Sequence record: NC_042307.1
Source of the DNA: a phage
Reading direction: 5' to 3' (one strand)
Length of the DNA: 64,000 nucleotides
Part shown: positions 10,542 through 42,483 of the stretch, one piece after another
How the letters are laid out: each line of letters starts with the position of its first letter
How positions within the stretch are numbered: the stretch's first letter is position 1
Program-made: the position numbers and the translations under genes
The notes under the pieces: generated by a model
What the model saw: only the letters and a program-made list of their open reading frames with translations
What the model was told of the DNA's origin: nothing
Databases searched by the model: none

Positions 10542-10832
10542 TTAATCTTCTGGATTATCATCCAGGAAGTTTTTAATAGCTTCGTGCATAGTTTCCTTAC
10601 GAAGCTGACGTCCAATCAAAATATGATTAGCTTCTATTCGACCATTAGGTAAGCGATCTGCCAGAACTACTACAGGTACTTGACGTACACCAAATTTCTG
10701 CATTAATTCTGTATTATCAGTCTCTTTATGGATTTCCAAATTATAGTCATTGACTACTTTATCAAATACTGGCTCAAACATTTTGCAAGGATTGCAAGTA
10801 GAACCTTTCAATAGATATACTAATTTACTCAT
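10542..10832 (-). CDS. thioredoxin/glutaredoxin-like protein
   Basis: Redox 'CNPC' motif near N-terminus, about 96 aa. Confidence 0.5.
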   Translation of the reverse strand: MSKLVYLLKGSTCNPCKMFEPVFDKVVNDYNLEIHKETDNTELMQKFGVRQVPVVVLADRLPNGRIEANHILIGRQLRKETMHEAIKNFLDDNPED

Positions 10833-11355
10833 TATTTAAATCCTCAATACTTGGAATAACTCCATTAAATACCTCTAAAACAGCACGCTCTCCGTGTAGT
10901 TTTTGTCTTAAAGTATTGGCTGATTTAACTGCCAATTCTAAATCTTTATGTTCAAAGCGCCCGCCGGATATACTTTCTCCATTTGAGTTCACGACGTAGA
11001 CTTGCCACTTACCTCGATTCCATGAAACTCCTAAATAGCCGGATTTACTCCATGCTTTCCTATTTCTTAGATTTTCCTGTTTAGTAGCATTACGAATATT
11101 ACACCACCTATTATCATAGGTTATGCGATTTTCATGGTCCATCTCATGCTCTGGCCATTCTCCAGTCATGTATAGACATGCTAATTGCTGCGCATAATAA
11201 GGGCGTTTATTAACGGTTATTCTAATGTATCCATCTTTAGTGAGTGTTCCTGCTATATCCCCCCTCTTTTTCGGTCCTCTACTTACTTTCCATGTAAAGA
11301 TTCCCGTTTCAGGGTCGTAATTGAACATCTGTTTAAGAGTATCCTGTGTAATCAT
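10825..11355 (-). CDS. HNH homing endonuclease
   Basis: 'HEMDHENRITYDNRWCNIRNATKQEN' motif. Confidence 0.65.
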   Translation of the reverse strand: MITQDTLKQMFNYDPETGIFTWKVSRGPKKRGDIAGTLTKDGYIRITVNKRPYYAQQLACLYMTGEWPEHEMDHENRITYDNRWCNIRNATKQENLRNRKAWSKSGYLGVSWNRGKWQVYVVNSNGESISGGRFEHKDLELAVKSANTLRQKLHGERAVLEVFNGVIPSIEDLNNE

Positions 11356-11780
11356 AGTTTATTAATAGCTTCTAAGAAGTTTTTCATGCACTTAACAGTT
11401 GCGGTGCTCAGATCAAGATTTACACCCAAACACTCGGTTAATGCTTCCTGATAAGGAGCCTTTAATCTGCCTTCTGGGACTTCTACCTTCTTATATTCTT
11501 TATTTTGGACCTTTTTAATCATAGTCTCTAGTACAAGAAGTGGTAATTTAGCACCTTCAATATCAGTACCCAAAAGTTCAGCTAAAATTTTATTAAGATC
11601 AAGACGAGTTAACTTTTTGCCCTTAGACATAGATGCACCTACCTTTGTATCAATAGATTTTCCCGCTTTCTTTTCGAGCTTTTTGTACTCAGGAGAGTCA
11701 TGATCACGGAGTGCAATGTTTAGCTCGTAATGTGGTATACGAAAATGTTCCGCCATTTGAGTGTAGAAACGATCAGACAT
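11352..11780 (-). CDS. hypothetical protein (142 aa)
   Basis: ORF. Confidence 0.45.
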   Translation of the reverse strand: MSDRFYTQMAEHFRIPHYELNIALRDHDSPEYKKLEKKAGKSIDTKVGASMSKGKKLTRLDLNKILAELLGTDIEGAKLPLLVLETMIKKVQNKEYKKVEVPEGRLKAPYQEALTECLGVNLDLSTATVKCMKNFLEAINKL

Positions 11781-12349: not shown

Positions 12350-12763
12350 TTAAACTAGTTCGACATGACCGCCATCATAGGTACCACGTTTTATTTCATC
12401 GTGATAGTCTCCCGAAGCATTCCAATCAGCACCAAAACGAAGTTTAATGCCTAGTTCTTTACCAGCTTGTTCAAAAGCCTTTTTAACTGCCCAAAATGCT
12501 TCTAAGTCATTCCAGTCAATTTTGCCATTAATATATGGAGCAAAATCGATAGCATCTCCAGTAATATGTTTGCTTTTACTAGGATCTTTTAGAAATGAAG
12601 TACCATTAGCAATATTTTGGGCACTTTGTGCTACTGTACGAATACCTTGCACGATTGTGAAATCGTACGGAGATAATTCTAAAGCCCTACGAGCTACTTT
12701 TTGTAGTTCGGGCTTAACGGTAGCTAATTGTTTTTCACTATTTTTACCAAATTTAAAACTCAT
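12350..12763 (-). CDS. lys: endolysin, L-alanyl-D-glutamate peptidase (T5 Lys-like, 137 aa)
   Basis: Size and sequence recall of T5 endolysin; follows holin gene. Confidence 0.7.
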   Translation of the reverse strand: MSFKFGKNSEKQLATVKPELQKVARRALELSPYDFTIVQGIRTVAQSAQNIANGTSFLKDPSKSKHITGDAIDFAPYINGKIDWNDLEAFWAVKKAFEQAGKELGIKLRFGADWNASGDYHDEIKRGTYDGGHVELV

Positions 12764-13443
12764 ATTGATCTACCTAAAGATCTCTGTTGTGGGGAACAGA
12801 GCTTTGCTAAATATTCCTTGAACTGTTCAGAATCAGCTGTATCTACCGGATTATCTTTCCAAGCAATACCAATGTACCCAGCATAGATATTTTTTAGATT
12901 GAAATATGGACAAGTGTATATGTAATTAAAAGTAACGTTTTTAAACGCAGGTATATTTAACCCCATATATTTATTTACTCTTACACTTAAATCCGATGCG
13001 TAGTTAAAGCCCTCTAAATGACGTCTGTATAATTCAGACGTTTTATTTACCGCTTTATCGGCCAAGTCAGCCCTATCTAATTGCGCATTACTTTCCCATG
13101 CAATAATATTGGAATAGTCATTGATAGCATCTGGTTTATACTTGACTACAAAAACAGCATCTGCACCCGTCTGAGAGAAGAGAACCATGCTCTTTTCCCT
13201 CGCCACATCAGGGAAGTTATCTATCCTCTGGGTTTGTAAATCCTGTAAAACTGCAGACGTGGAAAAAGTCTTTAAGAATGACATCACTTCACTAGTATTA
13301 CTAACAAATAAGAAAATAATGACAGCAACTAAGATAGTTAGCAGACGTTTAAGAAGCGATGCTGGGTCTTTCGCTTCTTGGAGCAGTACTGTTAATAATT
13401 GTAAGAACTTTTCCAATTTGTAACCTCCTCTAACCAGTACCAT
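12760..13443 (-). CDS. holin (T5-type); start uncertain
   Basis: TM 'LLTILVAVIIFLFV', 4-bp overlap with endolysin. Confidence 0.55.
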   Translation of the reverse strand: MVLVRGGYKLEKFLQLLTVLLQEAKDPASLLKRLLTILVAVIIFLFVSNTSEVMSFLKTFSTSAVLQDLQTQRIDNFPDVAREKSMVLFSQTGADAVFVVKYKPDAINDYSNIIAWESNAQLDRADLADKAVNKTSELYRRHLEGFNYASDLSVRVNKYMGLNIPAFKNVTFNYIYTCPYFNLKNIYAGYIGIAWKDNPVDTADSEQFKEYLAKLCSPQQRSLGRSI

Positions 13444-13572
13444 TATACTAATTTTGGAGGAAAATTTCAATGGGTTTTTAAATGTTACACTTGGAGCACA
13501 AAATTATGTCGTTGTCAAGAAGAATTTTAGATAAAAGAAAAGCCAGGGTACTTAAACCTGGCTTAAAATTAC

Positions 13573-14184: not shown

Positions 14185-14937
14185 TTACCCCACTAGTGGT
14201 TCTAGCTCTGAGTCACAGAAGTTATACACTTCTAGTGTGAGGTTATAGATACCATCGGGTGTATTAGCTAATTCGTGAGTGATATATTTTGCAGGAATAC
14301 CACTTTCAGATGGATGATCTGATTTAATAGTGAACTTCTGCTCAGCGGGCACTACATTTACTAGTAAAGAATCCATATCTAAATGGTTCGTTTCTCTGAG
14401 TAACTCTCCTTCATTGGGGAATCTCACATCTGTTATTACGGCGACATCTGGGTCGTCTTTAGCGATGGATTGCTCCAGAATTATGAGCCAAATGCGTTCA
14501 TGTACCAGCTGCCTTCCTAGCTCTGTTCCTACGAGCTGTAACATTTTTCTTGGAGAAATAAATAAACTATAAAGTCCGTCTTCTTTATTCTCTGAGATAA
14601 GTTGTTGAGGATTAAGATATTTTTCCTCAAAAATCGGCCAAAGGTACGAGAAGTCTTCAAACTTATCGATACCGTATTTAAACCATACGTCTCTAGCTCG
14701 CTCCAACTGAGATTGTGTGACTGTAAACCATTGGTCAATCTCTTTCCCTCTGCGCTCTCCTAGAAACTCTGGAGTTACACCGAGGATTACGGATGCAAGT
14801 TCATAAACGGGCTTAGCAAAACTGTAACGACGGGATAAACACGTTGGATACGTGTCATTACACCAATCGATAATTAATTTTGCAACGGTATCTTTTCCTG
14901 CACCTGCCCCGCCATGTAAACCTACTAGTACGCTCAT
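14185..14937 (-). CDS. dnk: deoxynucleoside-5'-monophosphate kinase (T5 Dnk-like, 250 aa)
   Basis: P-loop 'GGAGAGKDT'; size matches T5 enzyme. Confidence 0.6.
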   Translation of the reverse strand: MSVLVGLHGGAGAGKDTVAKLIIDWCNDTYPTCLSRRYSFAKPVYELASVILGVTPEFLGERRGKEIDQWFTVTQSQLERARDVWFKYGIDKFEDFSYLWPIFEEKYLNPQQLISENKEDGLYSLFISPRKMLQLVGTELGRQLVHERIWLIILEQSIAKDDPDVAVITDVRFPNEGELLRETNHLDMDSLLVNVVPAEQKFTIKSDHPSESGIPAKYITHELANTPDGIYNLTLEVYNFCDSELEPLVG

Positions 14938-15470
14938 TTATTAAGTTCCTCTAAAGTTGGTAAAGATTTTGTAGAATCAAAAGTTTCTACAACAGCATTT
15001 TCACCATGCAACTGTAAACGAAGTTCATTGGCTCTTTTAACTGCCAACTCTAAATCTAGGTATCTAAAGGAGCCTCCATACATATTAGTACCTCTAAAAT
15101 TAGCAACATTTACTTCCCACTTCTGGTCACGTTTCCTCCAGCTAATTCCTAGATAACCAGATTTACTTCTAGTAGCTTTATTTCTCTGGTTTTCTTGATT
15201 ATTAGACTCTCTAAGATTTACCCAACGATTGTCGCTCCTTACGCGGTTTATGTGATCTACCATCTCAGGAGTATAGCCCTCCATATAAAGGAATGCTAGC
15301 TGATGTGCCAGGTAGGGTTTTCCATCTACCTTTATTTGTATATATCCATCTTTCCTAAGTGTACCTGCGATATTACCAGCTTTTTGATTACCAACAGCCA
15401 CTAACCTAATAAATAATCCAGTATCAGGGTTATATTCAAGTAATTCCTTTAATCTTTCTTGTATTACCAC
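14934..15470 (-). CDS. HNH homing endonuclease (MVIQERLKEL family)
   Basis: Paralog of 7325..7861. Confidence 0.7.
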   Translation of the reverse strand: MVIQERLKELLEYNPDTGLFIRLVAVGNQKAGNIAGTLRKDGYIQIKVDGKPYLAHQLAFLYMEGYTPEMVDHINRVRSDNRWVNLRESNNQENQRNKATRSKSGYLGISWRKRDQKWEVNVANFRGTNMYGGSFRYLDLELAVKRANELRLQLHGENAVVETFDSTKSLPTLEELNK

Positions 15471-15471
15471 A

Positions 15472-15825
15472 TTAATCTTTCCTATTGTTAATTGGTGGAT
15501 AATATACTAAACAACGTTTTTCTTGCAAATCTTGGCGGTAGAAGCAAACCATACTTGTCAGTCGTGAGATATATGAATATTCTGCCTCGCGGCATTTTGC
15601 CAACATATTCCAATCTTTATATGGTACGACTACTAGTACGCCATCCTCCCCATTTGTAGCTAATTTCTTTTCAAACTTAAAGTCAAAGCTACAAGGTTGA
15701 AGTCCTTTAGGCCAGTCCACATGAGCTGTTGGTAGTTCATGGGTAGGTTCTGGCTTTATTTCTTGTGCACAGCCTGTGATTGTGATTGCGGCTGCGAGCA
15801 GTATTCCAAGTTTTATTTTGTGCAT
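15472..15825 (-). CDS. lipoprotein (possible o-spanin or exclusion lipoprotein)
   Basis: Signal peptide with lipobox 'ITGC'. Confidence 0.5.
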   Translation of the reverse strand: MHKIKLGILLAAAITITGCAQEIKPEPTHELPTAHVDWPKGLQPCSFDFKFEKKLATNGEDGVLVVVPYKDWNMLAKCREAEYSYISRLTSMVCFYRQDLQEKRCLVYYPPINNRKD

Positions 15826-16511
15826 CTACGCACCTCATAATGTGTTTCTATGTATTGTTCCACTTCTACTGGAGAAACATTGAAAAACTCTGTACTTCCA
15901 CTAAACCCCCCATAACTGCATCTTTTATTTTTATAGACACTATGTAGGTCAGCTTCGATCTTAGCTGTTTCTTCCTTAGAACCCTTGCCACAAATATAGT
16001 AAGATGATACTCTCAGATCTTTAAAACCACTACAAGACTTAACTTCTAGAAGTCTTTTCTGCACACTCTTACTTATACCTATTTTTATGCCTTTATCTGA
16101 AACAAATATGTATAAAAATCCTTGTGTATCCCAAGCTGTTTTGGCACAATTTGGGCACCCACTATGGTGTAAAACGTGGTTAGTGGTTGTCTCCCACTGA
16201 TGGGAACATGTATTACATAAAAACTTTAGCTTAGAAGTAGAATTAGTATATTCACTTAGTAATACGATTTTTCTAGGACTGAGGAGTGAGTTAATCCTGT
16301 CTTTGGTTAACTTTTCATTGCCTGCACATTTTGGGCATCCTCTACCTTTATTTCTGACATTTGTAGGGGCTGTTAACCATGTATTAGAGCATATAAGACA
16401 CTTAAATTGTGTCTTTGTCTTATTATGTTCATATTCCCCTACTAATCTTACTGTCCTACCTTGAGCTTCTAAATCTTTATTAAAGATTTCTTTATTTATT
16501 TTTACGCTCAT
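15813..16511 (-). CDS. T5orf172/GIY-YIG-like endonuclease with tandem zinc-ribbon repeats
   Basis: Repeated 'C..C..W....GCP.C' units then 'GFLYIFVSDKGIKIG' core. Confidence 0.55.
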   Translation of the reverse strand: MSVKINKEIFNKDLEAQGRTVRLVGEYEHNKTKTQFKCLICSNTWLTAPTNVRNKGRGCPKCAGNEKLTKDRINSLLSPRKIVLLSEYTNSTSKLKFLCNTCSHQWETTTNHVLHHSGCPNCAKTAWDTQGFLYIFVSDKGIKIGISKSVQKRLLEVKSCSGFKDLRVSSYYICGKGSKEETAKIEADLHSVYKNKRCSYGGFSGSTEFFNVSPVEVEQYIETHYEVRRCTK

Positions 16512-16917
16512 CCCTACAGTACTCCAAGCTACCAGAAAGACATGCTAATCTTTCCTCGAATTCCTTACTCTGCTTTTTAGCAATTAATGTAACCAATCCA
16601 GGCTTTGCAGCTATAATATCTTGACGACTAAGTGCTTTATCAAGCTGATTAATTTTCTTGTCTAGATCTGCTTGCGAAACATTATTCATTGTGAAATACT
16701 GATTCATTCGAGTCTCACGAAGTTCACTCTCAGCCCTCACATTATTAAGGGAAGTTTCTAGAGCAGAGATCTTTTTAGTAGCTACTGCAAGATCACCTGC
16801 TAGAGTCTCAACCTTATTAACTAAGTGATAAGCACCGAATCCGATGCCTATCGCCAAACCAGCTCCCAGGATATACATCTTGTTATTCCAAACTAAGTCT
16901 ACAAACCATTTCCGCAT
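16492..16917 (-). CDS. N-terminal TM + coiled-coil protein (possible i-spanin)
   Basis: 'ILGAGLAIGIGFGAY' TM then heptad-rich region. Confidence 0.4.
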   Translation of the reverse strand: MRKWFVDLVWNNKMYILGAGLAIGIGFGAYHLVNKVETLAGDLAVATKKISALETSLNNVRAESELRETRMNQYFTMNNVSQADLDKKINQLDKALSRQDIIAAKPGLVTLIAKKQSKEFEERLACLSGSLEYCRDERKNK

Positions 16918-17414
16918 TAGCCTGTACTCGCAAACTCACCGTGGAGTTCTTTGAGTTTGGTATCCCGCCATTTTATAGCCTCTTCCAAACTCTTAAGTGT
17001 TTTCGAAACTTGCTTACCATGTTTGGTAATTCTTACTTGGTAAGTCCCATTTGTTTTTCTATGGATATTTTTAACGCCTAAATGGTTATCGCTTCTTACT
17101 TTTTGGTTACAAGCATTATCAGATCTTGTAGCAGGCCTTAGATTCTCAAATCTATCATTAGTTGAGTCTTTGTCCTTGTGATCAACTATTTCAGGCCATT
17201 CTCCAGTATGCCATGCATAGATTAATCTATGTGCCCCTATAGCTATGGAACCATTATATAGTTCAACTACTCTATGCCCTGTACTTTGTCTAGATCCTGC
17301 TACTGTTCCGGCGAATATCTTATTAAAATGTTCGTCCCCTTCCCTGGGTTTCCAGATAAGATTACCATCTTCTTGGTAATCGAAGATTCTTCTTAGCTCT
17401 TCCTTACTGATCAT
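16917..17414 (-). CDS. HNH homing endonuclease
   Basis: 'EIVDHKDKDSTNDRFENLR' motif. Confidence 0.65.
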   Translation of the reverse strand: MISKEELRRIFDYQEDGNLIWKPREGDEHFNKIFAGTVAGSRQSTGHRVVELYNGSIAIGAHRLIYAWHTGEWPEIVDHKDKDSTNDRFENLRPATRSDNACNQKVRSDNHLGVKNIHRKTNGTYQVRITKHGKQVSKTLKSLEEAIKWRDTKLKELHGEFASTG

Positions 17415-19005: not shown

Positions 19006-19331
19006 TTCAGATCCTTTTCATTAATTAAAATATTTGTAAATAATGGGGTATTCCCCAAGCACATGGTAGGGCCAAATGTATTCATGGCTACCCATAACTG
19101 CATGGTTATCATACCGTCTTTAATCGCCGGATCTTTATACTCCTCGATACGTTTCTTGGCAAAAGCAACTATGTCTGGATTATTTTTATTTTCCTGAATA
19201 TAGTCATGCCAAAACTGGGTATTCTCACTACGTAGGAATGTTAAAATATCCTTAGTTGCTGGAATCTGCACTGTGCTGTTGATGTTTAGTCTTTTCACGT
19301 TCTTCTCTCTGTTATTCTTTAGGAAACCCAT
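19002..19331 (-). CDS. hypothetical protein (109 aa)
   Basis: ORF. Confidence 0.4.
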   Translation of the reverse strand: MGFLKNNREKNVKRLNINSTVQIPATKDILTFLRSENTQFWHDYIQENKNNPDIVAFAKKRIEEYKDPAIKDGMITMQLWVAMNTFGPTMCLGNTPLFTNILINEKDLK

Positions 19332-19821
19332 TAAACTCTTCGATGACTGCTAGAGTTCCGTGCAATTCTAATCGTAATCCATTAGCTTTGTATACTGCAG
19401 ATTCTAAGTCTTCATAATCGAATAGACCACCGTAAACTCTAATACCTTCGTTATTATTAGTATAAACTCTCCATTTCTGGAGATGAGTATCCCAAGATAC
19501 TCCTAAGTATCCCGAATTGCTAGTAGCAGTCCTATTTCTATTATTTTCCTGCCTAGAACTATCTCTGAGATTACTCCACCTATTATCATCCCTAATTCTA
19601 TTGATATGATCAACAAATTCAGGAATATACCCTTCCATAAACAAGAAGGCTAATCTATGCGCTAGTTCCCTGTGTCCATCTCCAACTCTAATCTGAATAT
19701 ACCCATAGTTATTAGGCTTATTATTTATAGGTTTTATTCTACCACTTTTTAGACGTCTAGAAAATAATCCTGTTTCTGGATCATATATCAGCAGTTCTTT
19801 TAACCTTTCTTGTGTAATCAT
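19312..19821 (-). CDS. HNH homing endonuclease
   Basis: 'EFVDHINRIRDDNRWSNLRDSSRQEN'. Confidence 0.7.
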   Translation of the reverse strand: MITQERLKELLIYDPETGLFSRRLKSGRIKPINNKPNNYGYIQIRVGDGHRELAHRLAFLFMEGYIPEFVDHINRIRDDNRWSNLRDSSRQENNRNRTATSNSGYLGVSWDTHLQKWRVYTNNNEGIRVYGGLFDYEDLESAVYKANGLRLELHGTLAVIEEFNGFPKE

Positions 19822-21698: not shown

Positions 21699-21883
21699 TA
21701 GCTCTCCTGTTTGGTAGTTAGTAGTGGATTTGAACCACTGTAGTCGCTCCGTATGAAGGAGGTGCATAACCACTCTGCCAACTAACTATTATGTTTTACT
21801 AGACTAAGTAAGTATTCTTTGTACTCTTTAGACCAATTAGCTTTTTTAAACTTTCCTGGACGCATAGTCTTAATTCCTAAATT

Positions 21884-21960
21884 TGGTACTCCGGGAGGGA
21901 TTTAAACCCCCGATCTCTCGGTTATCAGCCGAGTGCTTTAGATCGCTAAGCTACCGAAGT
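21884..21960 (-). tRNA. tRNA-Ile (anticodon GAU)
   Basis: Hand-folded cloverleaf; CCA encoded. Confidence 0.6.
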
Positions 21961-21975
21961 ATTAAAATATTTACA

Positions 21976-22266
21976 TCACACACTTTCTAAGTAAGAAGTA
22001 TAATGGAATTTAGTTTCTCCAGTCTTATCTACTTCTACCTCAGTTCGTGGTACTTGACGAACTACACCATGAATCATCTTATAGCGAATGCCTTTAGCTG
22101 GTTCATGATCTTTTGGAAATACTTGTTTAACCGTTACTACTTTATATCCTTCACGCGGTGTTAACACTACTACTTGATCACCCTCTTTGATTTTCCAGGA
22201 GGGTGGAAATTCATAGGTATATCTTTGACCACCAGTTTGGAATACTACAGAAAGATAACGTTTCAT
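21976..22266 (-). CDS. hypothetical protein (96 aa)
   Basis: ORF with upstream promoter-like sequence. Confidence 0.4.
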   Translation of the reverse strand: MKRYLSVVFQTGGQRYTYEFPPSWKIKEGDQVVVLTPREGYKVVTVKQVFPKDHEPAKGIRYKMIHGVVRQVPRTEVEVDKTGETKFHYTSYLESV

Positions 22267-22340
22267 TTGGTTTCCCTCTCATTAATTTATATAATTATTA
22301 TAACAAGAAATAAGAGAGAATGCAAATGAATTTTTAAATT

Positions 22341-22415
22341 TGGTGCTCCCACCAGGAATCGAACCCGGTTCAGATGCTTACAAGGCAACTGCATCGCCAG
22401 CAATGCTTTAGGAGC
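22341..22415 (-). tRNA. tRNA-Thr (anticodon UGU), one mismatch in anticodon stem
   Basis: Hand-folded; CCA encoded. Confidence 0.5.
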
Positions 22416-22435
22416 GATGATCCCGTTATTTCAAC

Positions 22436-22600
22436 GGGATTTCTTTTTCAATAACAGGAGACTTATCAGTCATAACTGTCATAGCCAACTGCTGAAGAAA
22501 CTCGAAAGTTAGCTTTAAACGTTCTTCACCTAATTCAATCTCAACGTATTTCTTTTGCTTGTCAACCTTTAATTTTAGGTTATCAGCCATCTTCTGATTC
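22436..22600 (-). CDS. small hypothetical protein (54 aa, below track cutoff)
   Basis: ATG 22600 to TAA 22436; 'MADNLKLKVDKQKKYVEIEL...'. Confidence 0.3.
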
Positions 22601-22804
22601 TCGTTGCTCGGCTACTGCTAGCCAGTCTGGTAAAAGAAACTTAGTACGAAACTCTTCATAAGATTCTTCTGGATAAAAGCTAAAACCTCCTTTCTCATCA
22701 TTCAAGATAACAGAGCCGTCAGTTTGTTCATACGCTCGATATGTTTCTCCAATAATGATAACTCGCTTATCAGTACTTTTATTACGAAACTCAAAAACGT
22801 GCAT
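22583..22804 (-). CDS. hypothetical protein (73 aa)
   Basis: ORF. Confidence 0.35.
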   Translation of the reverse strand: MHVFEFRNKSTDKRVIIIGETYRAYEQTDGSVILNDEKGGFSFYPEESYEEFRTKFLLPDWLAVAEQRESEDG

Positions 22805-22818
22805 TGTGTTTCCTTATT

Positions 22819-22893
22819 TGGTGCGGGATACGAGAGTCGAACTCGTGTTTACTGGTTGGAAGCCAGTTATTCTAGCCACTGAACTAATCACGC
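22819..22893 (-). tRNA. tRNA-Gly (anticodon UCC)
   Basis: Hand-folded; CCA encoded. Confidence 0.6.
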
Positions 22894-22900
22894 ATTAATT

Positions 22901-22984
22901 TGGCTGGAGAAGGAGGATTCGAACCTACGTACCTTCCGGTTATGAGCCGGGTGCTCATACCATATGGGCTTGAGAACCAGAATT
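22901..22984 (-). tRNA. tRNA-like element, anticodon loop 'CUCAUAA' (CAU), acceptor stem noncanonical
   Basis: T-arm and CCA present; 5' acceptor does not pair. Confidence 0.3.
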
Positions 22985-23073
22985 TGGCGGAAGAAGTGGG
23001 AATCGAACCCACAAGGCTATATTTCAAACCGACAGATTAGCAATCTGCTGCAAAACCGTTCTGCTATTTTTCC
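22985..23073 (-). tRNA. tRNA-Ser (anticodon GCU), class II with long variable arm
   Basis: Hand-folded; CCA encoded. Confidence 0.55.
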
Positions 23074-23093
23074 GGATTTATAAATATATTATA

Positions 23094-23612
23094 TTAGAAA
23101 TTTAGCTTCATGGCAAGAAAATTTTTCAAGTTTTCGGTAGACATCTCATCCACATCTATAGGAGAAACAAACCCATTTAATTGTTTAGCAAACTTTTCGC
23201 CAGCAGGATCATTATCCCCAACAGCTACCAATTTAAAAGGTAGTAATTTCAATTGCTTTAATAGCGGTTTTCCTGGAGAAGAACCCAACATTGCTAGAGC
23301 AGGATACCCAGCATTATGTAATGCTACAGCCTTAAATACAGATTCAGCAATTAATACTACTTTTTCATCCCCATTGAGAGTTTCTAGTCCCCATACACAC
23401 TGTGTAGTAGAATAAGTAAAATATCTAGCTTCAAAGGGGCACTTACCATGACCTTTTGGAGCAGAAGGATTATAAGTCTGATAGCCTCTCAACATTCCAG
23501 AGAAGTCATACAATGGGACTGTTAGCCATCCTTCTGGGCTTAACCAGCAGTGATATTTATCTGTATCAAACCCTCTAGATAAGAGATGTTCTGTTAGTTC
23601 ATCAATAGTCAT
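23094..23612 (-). CDS. Toprim-like domain protein
   Basis: 'VVLIAESVFKAVA...VAVGDNDPAGEKFA'; ATG 23612 with GAGAGG RBS. Confidence 0.4.
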   Translation of the reverse strand: MTIDELTEHLLSRGFDTDKYHCWLSPEGWLTVPLYDFSGMLRGYQTYNPSAPKGHGKCPFEARYFTYSTTQCVWGLETLNGDEKVVLIAESVFKAVALHNAGYPALAMLGSSPGKPLLKQLKLLPFKLVAVGDNDPAGEKFAKQLNGFVSPIDVDEMSTENLKNFLAMKLNF

Positions 23613-23831
23613 ACTAGATTCCTCTCTCAAATTTATAAATATATTATGCAGAGAATTTAGCATTCAAGCAATTGAATTTTTTAACTTTTTAGAGGAAAAT
23701 CACAGGATGCTTAAGGGTAGCAGGTAAGTGGGTAGACCCCAAAATTGTTATCCCCACTTGATTTTCAATGTGATATAGTGTAAAGTATTTGTCATAGCTG
23801 AGTGACCAAAGAGACACACTTATCCTCTACC

Positions 23832-23873
23832 TTAAAACAGAAAAGCCCTGCGCTCTCCAGGGAACACAGGGCT
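23832..23873 (-). terminator. Rho-independent terminator
   Basis: Stem AGCCCTG/CAGGGCT, 'tttctgtttt' in minus sense. Confidence 0.55.
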
Positions 23874-23897
23874 TACTTCGAATATTACGTGTGGGAA

Positions 23898-24845
23898 TTA
23901 CTTGTTACGCATATCCATAATCATCTGGCCATCGTAACCAGTGCCAACTACTGTTTGAGGTACACCGCCTTGATATTTCTGAGCACGAATCATTTCAACT
24001 TCTAGTTGTTTCCAGCGAATCATCTCAGGAGTAATAGTACGTTGCAGAGCGGCGTTAGCTTCGGCTTCCTTCTTAGCTGCGTACAGTTTAGCATCTGCAT
24101 CACGTTCGTTTGCAATAGCTTGGTTGTTACGAGCTTCACGATCTGCTTCTGCTTGTTTAACCTTCTGCTGTGCTTCTTGTTCAACACGAGCCAACTCAGC
24201 TTTCGCAGCATTAACTTGTTCCTCACGAACTTTGGTATTCTGTACCTGTTCCATGATTACAGGCGGCAAAGTAATATCCTGAAGGAACACTTGCTTAACT
24301 GTGTAACCATAAGGGCGTGCATACTCTTCAACTTCCTGTTGAATTGCGGTTTGTAATTGAGCCTGGATTTTAGCATCAAACAAATCTTGTGCTTTAGGAA
24401 CAGACTTACCGAACTCACGAATAGTGGACAGTAATTTTTCAGTTACATATTTGTCTAATGCTTGATCCTGGGTACCTGCGTTAATACGGTTAATCGGTGC
24501 CTTAGAACCATCAAACTGCAACATAACAGTCAGGTCAACAGTGGATTTAAACTTATCCTGACTAGGAACCTGAAGTTTATCTAATTTTACAGCAATGTCT
24601 TTTGTACTAAAAGTATCGAAAGATGCAAATGGGTTTACAAGATGAAAACCAGGTAATACAGGATTAGGGTCTACTTTACCCAGAAATGTTTGGGTTTTAA
24701 CCGTACCATCAGAAACAATAGTATATGAATTAAAAGCTAGGATTAAACCTGCTAAACCAACTACAGCACCAATACCCCAACGTTTAATAGTGCGGATTAC
24801 TTTTTGCTCAGAAGTCAGTTCTTTCATATTTTTAGTATTAAACAT
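23898..24845 (-). CDS. SPFH/band-7 (prohibitin/HflC-like) membrane protein
   Basis: N-terminal TM, long Ala/Glu/Gln-rich coiled coil; AAGGA RBS. Confidence 0.55.
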   Translation of the reverse strand: MFNTKNMKELTSEQKVIRTIKRWGIGAVVGLAGLILAFNSYTIVSDGTVKTQTFLGKVDPNPVLPGFHLVNPFASFDTFSTKDIAVKLDKLQVPSQDKFKSTVDLTVMLQFDGSKAPINRINAGTQDQALDKYVTEKLLSTIREFGKSVPKAQDLFDAKIQAQLQTAIQQEVEEYARPYGYTVKQVFLQDITLPPVIMEQVQNTKVREEQVNAAKAELARVEQEAQQKVKQAEADREARNNQAIANERDADAKLYAAKKEAEANAALQRTITPEMIRWKQLEVEMIRAQKYQGGVPQTVVGTGYDGQMIMDMRNK

Positions 24846-24879
24846 ATATTTCCTTTGTTTTAGTTACAGTTAATAAAAT

Positions 24880-24954
24880 TGGCCGAGGTGACAGGATTCG
24901 AACCTGCATAAAGGAATTTAGAAGACTCCTGCCTCTCCCTTAGACTACACCCCG
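24880..24954 (-). tRNA. tRNA-Arg (anticodon UCU)
   Basis: Hand-folded; CCA encoded. Confidence 0.55.
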
Positions 24955-39800: not shown

Positions 39801-40670
39801 GTGGAATGCCCGAAAAAATTAACTCAAGAAGAAGTAGATAAATGCCTAGCCGAGCGTGGTTTTACTATGGTGGATAAGCCATATCAAAATTCTAGGTATA
39901 GGCATACGTATCAGTGTGAATACGGTCACCAATGGACAGCTAAATTTGACGCTATTAGGAATGGAAAGACCAATTGTCCTACTTGCTCTATTAGTAGCCG
40001 TAAACTAGATATTGATAAAATTAATACTATATTACAGGACAGAGGTATTACATTGTTGAACGGCTATAAAAATAGTGCCGATATAAATACTAAATTTAGG
40101 TGTGTTTGTGGTCATGAGTGGGCTACTACACTTAATAGTATAATTAATAGAGGTAGTGGCTGCCCATCTTGTGCTGCTAATAAACAGAAACTTAGTGTTA
40201 ATACTATAAATGATCGTCTTGCTGCCAGAAATATCAGAATAGTGGGTGAGTATAGTAATGCGAATACTAAGACCGCCTTTCTTTGTGGTGCAGGGCATAG
40301 GTGGGAAGCTACTCCAGGGTCTGTATTAAGGGGGAACGGTTGTCCTTACTGTAGTTATAGAGATTTAGAAAGTACTAGGATATATGTTATGTATAGCCCC
40401 TCACATGGGGTTAAAATAGGTAGGTCTAACAATCCAGAGCGTAGACTTCTACATATTAGATCTAGTAGCCACCTTATTGATTTGGAAATAATTAAAGTAT
40501 TTGAAATTGGGGAATATAGTAGTGCAGTTCGAATAGAAAAATTAGCCCATAACTACTTTAAAGAGCAGAATTGCCAGTACAAAGATTTTGACGGCGCTAC
40601 GGAATTCTTCAATATTGAACCAAAAGTAGCTATAAAGTTTATCGAGGAAATAATCAATGACAGAGAATGA
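39801..40670 (+). CDS. T5orf172/GIY-YIG-like endonuclease with four zinc-ribbon repeats (GTG start)
   Basis: Repeated 'C.C.H.W....GCP.C'; 'RIYVMYSPSHGVKIGRS'. Confidence 0.55.
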   Translation: MECPKKLTQEEVDKCLAERGFTMVDKPYQNSRYRHTYQCEYGHQWTAKFDAIRNGKTNCPTCSISSRKLDIDKINTILQDRGITLLNGYKNSADINTKFRCVCGHEWATTLNSIINRGSGCPSCAANKQKLSVNTINDRLAARNIRIVGEYSNANTKTAFLCGAGHRWEATPGSVLRGNGCPYCSYRDLESTRIYVMYSPSHGVKIGRSNNPERRLLHIRSSSHLIDLEIIKVFEIGEYSSAVRIEKLAHNYFKEQNCQYKDFDGATEFFNIEPKVAIKFIEEIINDRE

Positions 40671-42483
40671 ATTAATTGAGAATTGCAAAGGTCTGCTCAC
40701 TCTAACTGCGGATAAGGACTTACAGCATAATAATGCTAATAAGCCTAGTGAGATGTTCCATACTCAAAGAGACTTATTGGCCGGAGAAATCAACAAATAT
40801 TTAGTATCGCAGGAATTACCCAAACATCTATTAGACGCCCATAATCTAGGTAAGATACACATTCATGATATGGATTACAGGGCGCAGGGGTACACTAACT
40901 GTTGCTTAGTAGACCTTGGTGGCATGCTGAAGAATGGTACTAAAATTGGTAATGCAAATATTGAAACTCCTAAATCCATAACTACTGCATGTGCAATCAC
41001 TGCTCAGATTATTGCCCAAGTATCTGGTGCTCAGTATGGTGGCACCTCTATTGATCGTATCGACGAGGTTCTAGCCCCGTATGTCAGAAAGTCTTACAAT
41101 AAACATCTGGGTCGTGGGCTACGTTGGCTCAAGGATGAAAGAAAAGCTGCTGTGTATGCTACTGAGCTTACTGAAAAAGAGTGTTATGATGCATTCCAAG
41201 CTCTAGAGTATGAAACTAATTCATTATTTAACTCTAATGGGCAGACCCCTTTTGTTACGCTTGGCTTTGGATTAGGTCAGGAGTGGGAGGAAAGGATGAT
41301 TCAGAAAGCCATCCTCCAAAATCGTATTAAAGGTTTAGGTGCTGCTGAGTCAACCCCTATCTTCCCTAAACTAGTATTCTCAGTTAAAGAAGGGTTAAAT
41401 AAAAATCCAGGCGATCCTAACTACGATATAAAACAGCTAGCACTTGAGTGTTCTGCTACCCGTATGTACCCAGACTATTTAAGCTATGAGAAAGTTGTAG
41501 CTGTTACTGGTGATTTTAAAGCCCCTATGGGTTGTCGTAGCTTTTTATCTGCTATCCCCTCCGGAGAAATTGCAGGGCGCAATAATTTAGGTGTAGTGTC
41601 TATTAATCTACCTATGGTTGCTGCTGAGGCAGATGGGGTTTTTGAAGATTTCTGGGATATTCTGGACAAATATGTGGATGAGGCTTTTGAAGCTCATGAT
41701 TTTTTCTTGGATAGACTTAAGAAAGTGAAGGCTAAACAAGCCCCTATTCTTTATATGCACGGTGGTTTTGGTGTGCGTTTAGATGGGGAAGAGTATGTAT
41801 GGCCTATTTTTGAGGGTAGATCTTCTGTATCTCTTGGATACATTGGGGTCTATGAGATGTGCCAAATAATGTTTAGTCTACCACAAACCCATAGGGATTG
41901 TATTGAATTTACAGAAGAAGTTCTTACTCACCTAAAAAATCGTTGCGAAGTTAAAGCTAATGAGACTAATCTTGGATTTAGCTTATACGCTACCCCTAGT
42001 GAGTCTCTATGTAATCGTTTTAATAAATTACTAGAACGTAGATTCCCAGAGTATTCTTGGTTAACAGACAAAGGCTATCTTACTAATAGTCACCATTTGG
42101 ACGTAAGAGAGAAGGTAGCCCCAGATACTAAATTTGAGTACGAAGCTCATTTTACCAAAATAGCTAATGGTGGTAATATATCGTTTGTGGAATTACCACA
42201 AATGAAAAAATTCCATAAAGCTCTTGAATACGTAGTAGATAAGGGACTAGAGTGTAGCCATTATATCGGTGTTAATATACCGATTGACGAGTGTTTCAAC
42301 TGTGGATATATGGGTGAATCTATTGCCTCTGAGCGTGGGTTTGTATGTCCAAGTTGTGGGTCTGAAGAAATAGAGGTTACACGTAGGGTTTGCGGGTACC
42401 TGGGATCCCCGGGCAGTAGGCCTTTCAATTCTGGGAAACAAAAAGAAGTGCTTGGTAGAGTAAAACACTTAAATCTTAAGTAA
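40657..42483 (+). CDS. nrdD: anaerobic ribonucleoside-triphosphate reductase NrdD
   Basis: Glycyl radical 'RRVCGYLG', zinc site 'CFNCG...CPSCG'. Confidence 0.8.
   Translation: MTENELIENCKGLLTLTADKDLQHNNANKPSEMFHTQRDLLAGEINKYLVSQELPKHLLDAHNLGKIHIHDMDYRAQGYTNCCLVDLGGMLKNGTKIGNANIETPKSITTACAITAQIIAQVSGAQYGGTSIDRIDEVLAPYVRKSYNKHLGRGLRWLKDERKAAVYATELTEKECYDAFQALEYETNSLFNSNGQTPFVTLGFGLGQEWEERMIQKAILQNRIKGLGAAESTPIFPKLVFSVKEGLNKNPGDPNYDIKQLALECSATRMYPDYLSYEKVVAVTGDFKAPMGCRSFLSAIPSGEIAGRNNLGVVSINLPMVAAEADGVFEDFWDILDKYVDEAFEAHDFFLDRLKKVKAKQAPILYMHGGFGVRLDGEEYVWPIFEGRSSVSLGYIGVYEMCQIMFSLPQTHRDCIEFTEEVLTHLKNRCEVKANETNLGFSLYATPSESLCNRFNKLLERRFPEYSWLTDKGYLTNSHHLDVREKVAPDTKFEYEAHFTKIANGGNISFVELPQMKKFHKALEYVVDKGLECSHYIGVNIPIDECFNCGYMGESIASERGFVCPSCGSEEIEVTRRVCGYLGSPGSRPFNSGKQKEVLGRVKHLNLK

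Follow-up and report, generated by a model that had tools for sequence, protein, structure and literature searches.

The window, as the whole 64-kb stretch of DNA analysed here is called, has a G+C content of about 38%. It carries, on its minus strand, two genes for small membrane proteins that are separated by an endonuclease gene. The genes of this locus and of its surroundings are given below in minus-strand order (coordinates, strand, identity, basis of identification).

16917..17414, minus strand: HNH endonuclease gene, orthologue of T5 hegF (F-TflVI) (HNH_3, 6.5e-13; match to T5 hegF).
16492..16917, minus strand: predicted i-spanin gene, 141 aa, orthologue of T5 T5.045 (phrog_739, transmembrane domain (TMD), alignment).
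15813..16511, minus strand: free-standing homing-endonuclease-type gene (HEG), 232 aa (Pfam, phrog_681).
15472..15825, minus strand: predicted o-spanin gene, 117 aa, orthologue of T5 T5.044 (phrog_812, lipobox, Cys, alignment).
14934..15470, minus strand: second HNH endonuclease gene, between the o-spanin gene and dnk (HNH_3, 3.7e-13).
12760..13470, minus strand: T-type holin gene (Phage_holin_T, Pfam 7.7e-112; T5 layout).
12350..12763, minus strand: putative endolysin gene, 137 aa (ORF placed like T5 lys (T5.040), directly downstream of the holin gene).

The window is 90-99% identical in DNA to hundreds of genomes of Demerecviridae (T5-like phages). It is identified by these matches as DNA of a Tequintavirus-type phage, because the best long ones, obtained with a 24-kb query, are to IrisVonRoten, vB_Sen_I1 and T5 (about 94% identity across 81-86%); none of the records in the phage collection is identical to it. 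A 2.5-kb query covering the spanin locus matches 449 records of T5-like phages; identity to T5 is 97.7% over the shared parts of this query, T5.044 and T5.045 included. The complete minus-strand order (T5.047 homologue, hegF, i-spanin, o-spanin, dnk, Clp-like protease, T-type holin, endolysin) matches T5, and the succession T5.047, spanins, dnk, Clp-like protease, holin and endolysin is also the context found in Shivani and phiR201. The holin gene is separated from the spanin genes by dnk and the Clp-like protease gene, as in T5. The endolysin is assigned from its position; the corresponding gene is so annotated in T5, Shivani and R2. The preliminary description had considered that a different spanin pair might lie next to the holin or endolysin gene; no such candidate was found beside either gene in the window. 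A six-frame lipobox scan of the whole 64-kb window, done with a crude pattern, revealed no other lipoprotein ORF. Promoter-like and terminator-like sites searched by a consensus scan of the region are not in excess over shuffled sequence, and the scan gave no indication of a promoter or terminator belonging to the endonuclease gene. The three ORFs of the preliminary description (i-spanin, endonuclease, o-spanin) are found at precisely the coordinates given there, all on the minus strand. They are not chance ORFs: both membrane proteins match lysis PHROGs and the locus is common to the T5-like records mentioned above.

The product of 16492..16917 matches phrog_739 ('Rz-like spanin', E 3.7e-37). 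It has a single hydrophobic segment, YILGAGLAIGIGFGAYHLV (residues 15-33; Kyte-Doolittle mean over 19 residues, 1.55), which is preceded by an N-terminal cytoplasmic tail and followed by a helical periplasmic domain of 108 residues. A single-sequence AlphaFold model is nearly all helix (H2-77, H82-97); its mean pLDDT of 65 makes it indicative only. Two Cys, Cys126 and Cys134, are located near the C-terminus in the motif ACLSGSLEYC. The general form of this motif, [AS]-C-x-[TS]-G-[NS]-x-x-x-C (C-x7-C), is conserved family-wide at the C-terminus of the i-spanin, whereas the tail past the second Cys is variable in the alignment and almost absent in AAS21. Compared with T5, the protein differs by one substitution (S52A) and by a recoded C-terminal end from residue 128 (...LACLTGNLEYCSQPQSQSQAVHKK in T5, ...LACLSGSLEYCRDERKNK in the window) and is otherwise identical.

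The product of 15472..15825 matches phrog_812 ('Rz-like spanin', E 3.2e-29). Its N-terminus, MHKIKLGILLAAAITITG|C, ends in the lipobox ITGC, with Cys19 as lipidation residue and Ala at +2; the lipobox is conserved in 10 of the 10 family members aligned. In enterobacteria, Ala at +2 corresponds to sorting to the outer membrane. The mature protein (99 aa) contains four further Cys (45, 78, 94, 105), eight Pro and the C-terminal motif CFYRQDLQEKRC. All six Cys considered (126 and 134 of the i-spanin; 45, 78, 94 and 105 of the o-spanin) are conserved across Demerecviridae. Residues 2-4 and one Val/Leu change distinguish the protein from its T5 counterpart, the rest being identical (96.6%, tblastn); its start reads MHKI in the window versus MFNW in T5. 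Taken together, both spanin proteins show 96-99% identity to T5.045 and T5.044. The single-sequence AlphaFold model of the o-spanin (disordered linker, beta-hairpin, helix, beta-hairpin) is of low confidence (pLDDT 50).

Neither protein has a meaningful match in Pfam, NCBIfam or PADLOC; the single match obtained, for the i-spanin, is FtsL-like, concerns the region of the TMD plus helix and is sub-threshold (22.5 bits for a cut-off of 50). A PDB sequence search with the three proteins gave no significant match, the endonuclease having just a weak DUF4379 zinc-ribbon match, and no solved relative of the spanins was found by sequence.

The lipoprotein was also proposed in the preliminary description to be, alternatively, a superinfection-exclusion factor, that is, a receptor-blocking protein like T5 Llp/Cor instead of an o-spanin. 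T5 does make such a protein, and the candidate is itself a small lipoprotein with early-region expression. The lipoprotein of the window, however, has no detectable similarity to T5 Llp in a direct comparison, and T5 llp is located elsewhere, at 110429..110662, where it adjoins oad, the gene of the receptor-binding protein. The gene is paired with that of the TMD/helical protein throughout Demerecviridae, its product shares PHROG 812 with the o-spanin of the T4-like phage Merlin, and, in the HEG-free relatives compared (three distant outgroups among them), the sequence of its start also codes for the C-terminus of the i-spanin. The superinfection-exclusion function, given this position, the obligatory pairing with the i-spanin and the failure to align with Llp or Cor, is rejected as almost certainly wrong.

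Two-component spanins are defined by Kongari et al. 2018 (PMC6139136; BMC Bioinformatics 19:326) as an i-spanin with a single N-terminal TMD (type II) and a mostly helical periplasmic domain, and an o-spanin with a signal peptidase II lipobox devoid of Asp at +2; the genes are embedded, overlapped or adjacent, with the i-spanin gene first and both on the same strand, at least one periplasmic Cys is present, and the subunits, joined by their C-termini, are needed to disrupt the outer membrane. The window has the TMD/helical i-spanin, the lipobox of an outer-membrane-sorted protein and the periplasmic Cys. Its i-spanin gene precedes its o-spanin gene on the same (minus) strand, with the 699-nt endonuclease ORF between them overlapping both. 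The two proteins belong to the same family as the T5 spanins (T5.045/T5.044; Shivani gp047/gp045; phiR201 g039/g037). T5.045 and T5.044 are named Rz-like spanins in RefSeq, and i-spanin and o-spanin are annotated in Shivani, NR01, LmqsSP1 and IrisVonRoten. A literature search yielded no paper on T5.044 or T5.045 by name and no experiment on any member of the T5 spanin family. On the basis of homology and topology, 16492..16917 and 15472..15825 are considered, with a probability of about 0.9, to encode both components of the spanin complex in a T5-like phage, with the HEG inserted in the ancestral overlap of the two genes. The preliminary description thus holds in its main assignments: an i-spanin-like protein (single N-terminal TM and helical periplasmic domain, PHROG 739), an o-spanin-like lipoprotein with lipobox ITGC (PHROG 812, Ala at +2) and, between their genes, a T5orf172-type endonuclease gene (Pfam T5orf172, 2.5e-8). 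The Cys/Pro character of a spanin, whose presence in the lipoprotein it had left to be verified, is found in the form of four conserved periplasmic Cys.

The pair of the window shares with lambda Rz/Rz1 its functional class and its topology (type II inner-membrane protein, outer-membrane lipoprotein, periplasmic Cys). The lambda genes are embedded and those of the window are not. No Pfam Rz or Rz1 signature was found on either window spanin, and the two fall outside the lambda Rz/Rz1 family. Lambda Rz1 is short, proline-rich and unstructured, whereas the mature o-spanin of the window (99 aa, 8% Pro) is predicted to be folded.

A relationship with spanins of the T4 PseT.3/PseT.2 type is possible; T5 is placed in a spanin family of its own by Kongari et al. 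2018 (PMC6139136). The pseT-adjacent spanins of the T4-like phage Merlin also match PHROGs 739 and 812. The o-spanin of the window is 29% identical to that of Merlin (E 2e-11, pairwise), both C-terminal Cys (C-x10-C) included, and the two proteins have in common the C-terminal motif C-[FY]-Y-R-x-D-L-x-E-x-R-C. In T4 PseT.2, Cys87 and Cys98 are essential (Kongari et al. 2018, PMC6139136); their 11-residue spacing is that of C-x10-C in the window o-spanin. The i-spanins of the window and of Merlin give no pairwise BLAST alignment and are linked by common PHROG membership only. The T4 pair is described as a beta-alpha-beta o-spanin and a two-helix i-spanin (PMC6139136), with which the window models agree at low confidence, and both pairs are located away from holin and endolysin. 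The pairs differ in their Cys (i-spanin: two periplasmic Cys in the window, none in T4; o-spanin: four in the window, two in T4) and in their architecture, which is separated in T4 and was, ancestrally, overlapped in the lineage of the window.

The product of 15813..16511 has four Pfam matches above the curated cut-offs (CapR, 8.9e-13; DUF4379, 6.3e-11; MUG113, 1.5e-10; T5orf172, at the value given above) and matches phrog_681 ('endonuclease', E 4e-54). It comprises two treble-clef zinc fingers (CapR/DUF4379) and a C-terminal T5orf172/MUG113 domain. T5orf172 and MUG113 are families of the GIY-YIG clan. The protein is, by its domains, a putative homing endonuclease of the GIY-YIG superfamily, and its Shivani orthologue is called GIY-YIG by Kongari et al. 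(PMC6139136). Its ORF has 20 nt in common with the i-spanin gene, at the stop of the latter, and 13 nt with the o-spanin gene, at the start.

The endonuclease DNA is found in 19 records, corresponding to about 13 phages of the genera Tequintavirus and Epseptimavirus; the o-spanin protein is found in 555 records, and the HEG is thus present in about 3% of records. Its distribution is sporadic among close relatives, and its site is the same in all of the records inspected (5/5). Distant homologues of the endonuclease are found in 831 phage records from many hosts, and a diverged paralogue (34% identity) is encoded in the window itself at 39801..40670. The gene resembles the free-standing HEGs of T-even and T5-like phages (e.g., T4 Seg proteins): these also are small, sporadic intergenic ORFs that lie exactly at a gene junction without destruction of the neighbours and have diverged paralogues in the genome. 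It differs from the T4 Seg-type HEGs in its site, where two genes overlap and the same nucleotides code for both; part of the target therefore had to be duplicated and recoded.

In T5, the spanin genes overlap by 70 nt and no endonuclease gene lies between them. When the window is aligned with T5 and Shivani, a clean insertion relative to T5, about 690 nt long, is seen. The following features mark the junctions.

16529..16543, minus strand: apparent vestige of the ancestral o-spanin start in the i-spanin tail, ATGTCTTTCTGGTAG, closed by TAG after four codons.
16516..16530, minus strand: upstream copy of an imperfect 15-nt direct repeat, AGCTTGGAGTACTGT, encoding SLEYC of the i-spanin.
15798..15812, minus strand: downstream copy of the imperfect 15-nt direct repeat, AACTTGGAATACTGC, encoding KLGILL of the o-spanin signal peptide.

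The two repeat copies are identical at 12 of their 15 nt. The old Shine-Dalgarno-like sequence, GAGGAAAG, is still found upstream of the vestigial o-spanin start, the sequence of which is identical in the four HEG+ alleles compared. The start used now is supplied by the 3' end of the endonuclease ORF, which contains GAGGTG (Shine-Dalgarno), the ATG and the first four o-spanin codons (MHKI). This junction architecture is the same in the window, Shivani, IrisVonRoten and phiR201 (4/4 HEG+ alleles compared), which points, as far as sequence comparison goes, to a single origin of the HEG insertion.

The arrangement is already known. The T5 spanin family of Kongari et al. 2018 (PMC6139136, Fig. 6d-f) has nine members, seven of which are overlapped; the pairs of Shivani and phiR201 are separated, unlike that of T5, by a GIY-YIG HEG of about 700 bp. 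The insert of these two phages has the position and junctions seen in the window. Publications and GenBank annotations thus already contain both the T5-family spanins and this exact HEG insert. The direction of the change (insertion or deletion) was left open in that publication (PMC6139136).

Relatives in which the pair is found without endonuclease gene, the search for which had been proposed in the preliminary description, do exist: T5, GEC_vB_N3, Slocum, K7_rec13 and AAS21 have overlapped genes and no insert. Three of them are outgroups with 36-44% o-spanin identity (Serratia phage Slocum, Klebsiella phage K7_rec13, Pantoea phage AAS21). In the HEG-free relatives, the o-spanin start lies inside the A-C codons of the i-spanin and the overlap measures 40-88 nt. 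Outgroups and T5-type phages have coupled codons in common, o-spanin x-N/F-W-K being read against i-spanin T/S-G-N. Since the distant Demerecviridae are all overlapped and devoid of insert, the overlap is, judging from these alignments, ancestral and the HEG insertion is the derived state.

The reverse history, in which the HEG-separated state is ancestral and the T5 overlap results from a precise deletion of the HEG via the 15-nt repeats, is quite unlikely. It would account for the imperfect direct repeats that border the insert, Kongari et al. 2018 (PMC6139136) allowed for either direction, and the divergence of the HEG parallels that of its flanks in IrisVonRoten and phiR201 (the window HEG is 87% and 86% identical to theirs, respectively, about as much as the flanks). 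It does not explain why the distant outgroups are all overlapped with the same coupled codons, nor why the insert is found in just about 3% of records. Recombination between the repeats would, moreover, leave in place the TAG by which the old o-spanin frame is ended; the T5 sequence would thus not be recreated by that recombination alone. As the HEG has diverged about as much as its flanks, old vertical inheritance with losses and homing with co-conversion are not separated by these data.

Under the insertion scenario, the HEG would have entered the dual-coding overlap, and a pair of the 'overlapped' type would thereby have become 'separated'. Some 15 nt of overlap sequence would have been duplicated in the process. 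The upstream repeat copy still codes for the C-x7-C of the i-spanin; the short tail that comes after it, RDERKNK, is new and runs into the start of the endonuclease gene. The o-spanin receives its Shine-Dalgarno sequence, ATG and MHKI codons from the 3' part of the endonuclease ORF. The endonuclease gene would be a selfish passenger, presumably co-transcribed with the spanin genes. Both spanins should still be made, since the three genes are tightly packed in one transcription unit. The i-spanin would be held in the inner membrane by its one N-terminal helix and would cross the periplasm as a helical rod, and the o-spanin, with its Ala at +2, would be sorted as a lipoprotein to the outer membrane. 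On the model of lambda Rz/Rz1 and T4 PseT.3/PseT.2, the C-termini of i-spanin and o-spanin would bind each other and the complex would be stabilised by disulfides (2 + 4 Cys). Once the murein is removed by holin and endolysin, the complex would, by the same analogy, destroy the outer membrane, probably by membrane fusion.

The insertion might instead have crippled the pair, the genes being in decay and lysis proceeding without spanins. What was altered is the extreme C-terminus of the i-spanin and the first four residues of the o-spanin, and in lambda it is through their C-terminal ends that Rz and Rz1 bind. The tail past the second Cys is, however, the naturally variable part of the i-spanin, nearly missing in AAS21. 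GAGGTG is a good Shine-Dalgarno sequence for the new start of the o-spanin, and the lipobox and signal peptide are unchanged. In the HEG+ phages (the window, Shivani, R2, IrisVonRoten and phiR201, which represent two genera), neither spanin ORF is interrupted, and all Cys as well as the C-x7-C are retained, despite divergence to 82-86% DNA identity. Loss of spanin function is highly improbable, because the ORFs are intact and conserved in these five diverged phages.

A single entry of the HEG into the ancestral spanin overlap and its spread over two genera are considered likely; it is part of this reading that the i-spanin past C-x7-C and the translational coupling of the o-spanin are dispensable, and that constrained lysis-gene junctions are preferred homing sites. 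The main value of the locus is a correct annotation, and its importance beyond that is small. The added value is evolutionary: a selfish endonuclease gene would have changed the pair from overlapped to separated with neither gene killed, about 15 nt of dual-coding sequence being duplicated and recoded and a new start codon being donated. The locus also marks which C-terminal parts of the i-spanin are constrained (C-x7-C) and which are free, a distinction useful for work on the interaction of T5-type and T4-type spanins. If the single-event insertion is true, it settles the direction left open by Kongari et al. 2018 (PMC6139136) and constitutes a natural experiment on the dispensability of the two features named above. 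The presence of endonuclease genes at all three junctions of the pair also suggests that overlaps or junctions of lysis genes under strong constraint are favoured homing sites.

The degree of relatedness to Shivani changes along the locus. In DNA, the endonuclease gene does not differ from that of Shivani (100% identity), and the body of the i-spanin gene is 99.7% identical. Identity falls to 94-97% in the o-spanin, dnk and protease genes, a hint of a recent tract shared with Shivani on the upstream side.

The two HNH genes occupy the outer junctions of the pair, so that all three spanin-pair junctions in the window carry endonuclease genes. The second HNH gene (14934..15470) distinguishes the window from T5, Shivani and R2, which lack it; it appears as an alignment gap in T5 and Shivani, and is found in about 20 records. 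For the 2.5-kb query, coverage by any one record of the phage collection searched is at most 81%, and the combination of three endonuclease genes is thus not in that collection. The hegF-type HNH gene lies directly upstream of the i-spanin gene in the window, T5 and R2, and not in Shivani. It directly adjoins the start of the i-spanin gene (TAATG), and the alleles that carry it have a different i-spanin N-terminus (MRKWFVDLVWNNKM versus MIKNFISSLWQGKW).

The N-terminal stretch of the i-spanin is found in two versions among the relatives compared:

16870..16917 (-), i-spanin N-terminal stretch, two versions among relatives.

The two versions, which cover residues 1 to ~14, track the HNH endonuclease gene of the hegF type located immediately upstream (16917..17414 (-)). 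This gene is present in T5, R2 and the window and absent from Shivani and IrisVonRoten. Since the version of the N-terminus follows the presence or absence of the hegF-type gene, the latter too rewrote the end of its neighbour: the end of the i-spanin gene is likewise rewritten by the adjoining endonuclease gene.

Further HNH or HNH-like genes are found in the window:

10825..11355 (-), HNH endonuclease-like ORF, 176 aa; its sequence pattern resembles that of the other HNH genes.
14934..15470 (-), HNH gene inserted between the o-spanin gene and dnk, the gene downstream of it.
19312..19821 (-), HNH endonuclease-like ORF, 169 aa, positioned as T5 hegE.

The HNH gene inserted next to the o-spanin gene starts with GTG, which overlaps the former TAATG junction, and copies ~91% identical are found in a few phages only (slur09, T5_ev219, BB1, S.Inf 5-2). 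The ORF at 10825..11355 is flanked by a thioredoxin-like gene (10542..10832) and the T5.038-like gene (11352..11780). The corresponding junction of T5 carries no gene. Endonuclease genes are unusually frequent in the early region of the window phage (at least five in 10 kb).

A paralogue of the T5orf172-type endonuclease is encoded further along:

39801..40670 (+), T5orf172-type endonuclease paralogue, 289 aa.

Its product is longer than the endonuclease encoded between the spanin genes (34% identity between the two). The 3′ end of the paralogue gene overlaps by 14 nt the following ORF (40657..42483), whose product resembles an anaerobic ribonucleotide reductase. The GC skew of the window changes from negative to positive at ~40000, in agreement with the coding-strand switch in the ORF lists.

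21712..24954 (-), six tRNA genes (Met, Ile, Thr, Gly, Ser, Arg).

These correspond to a portion of the usual T5 tRNA cluster.
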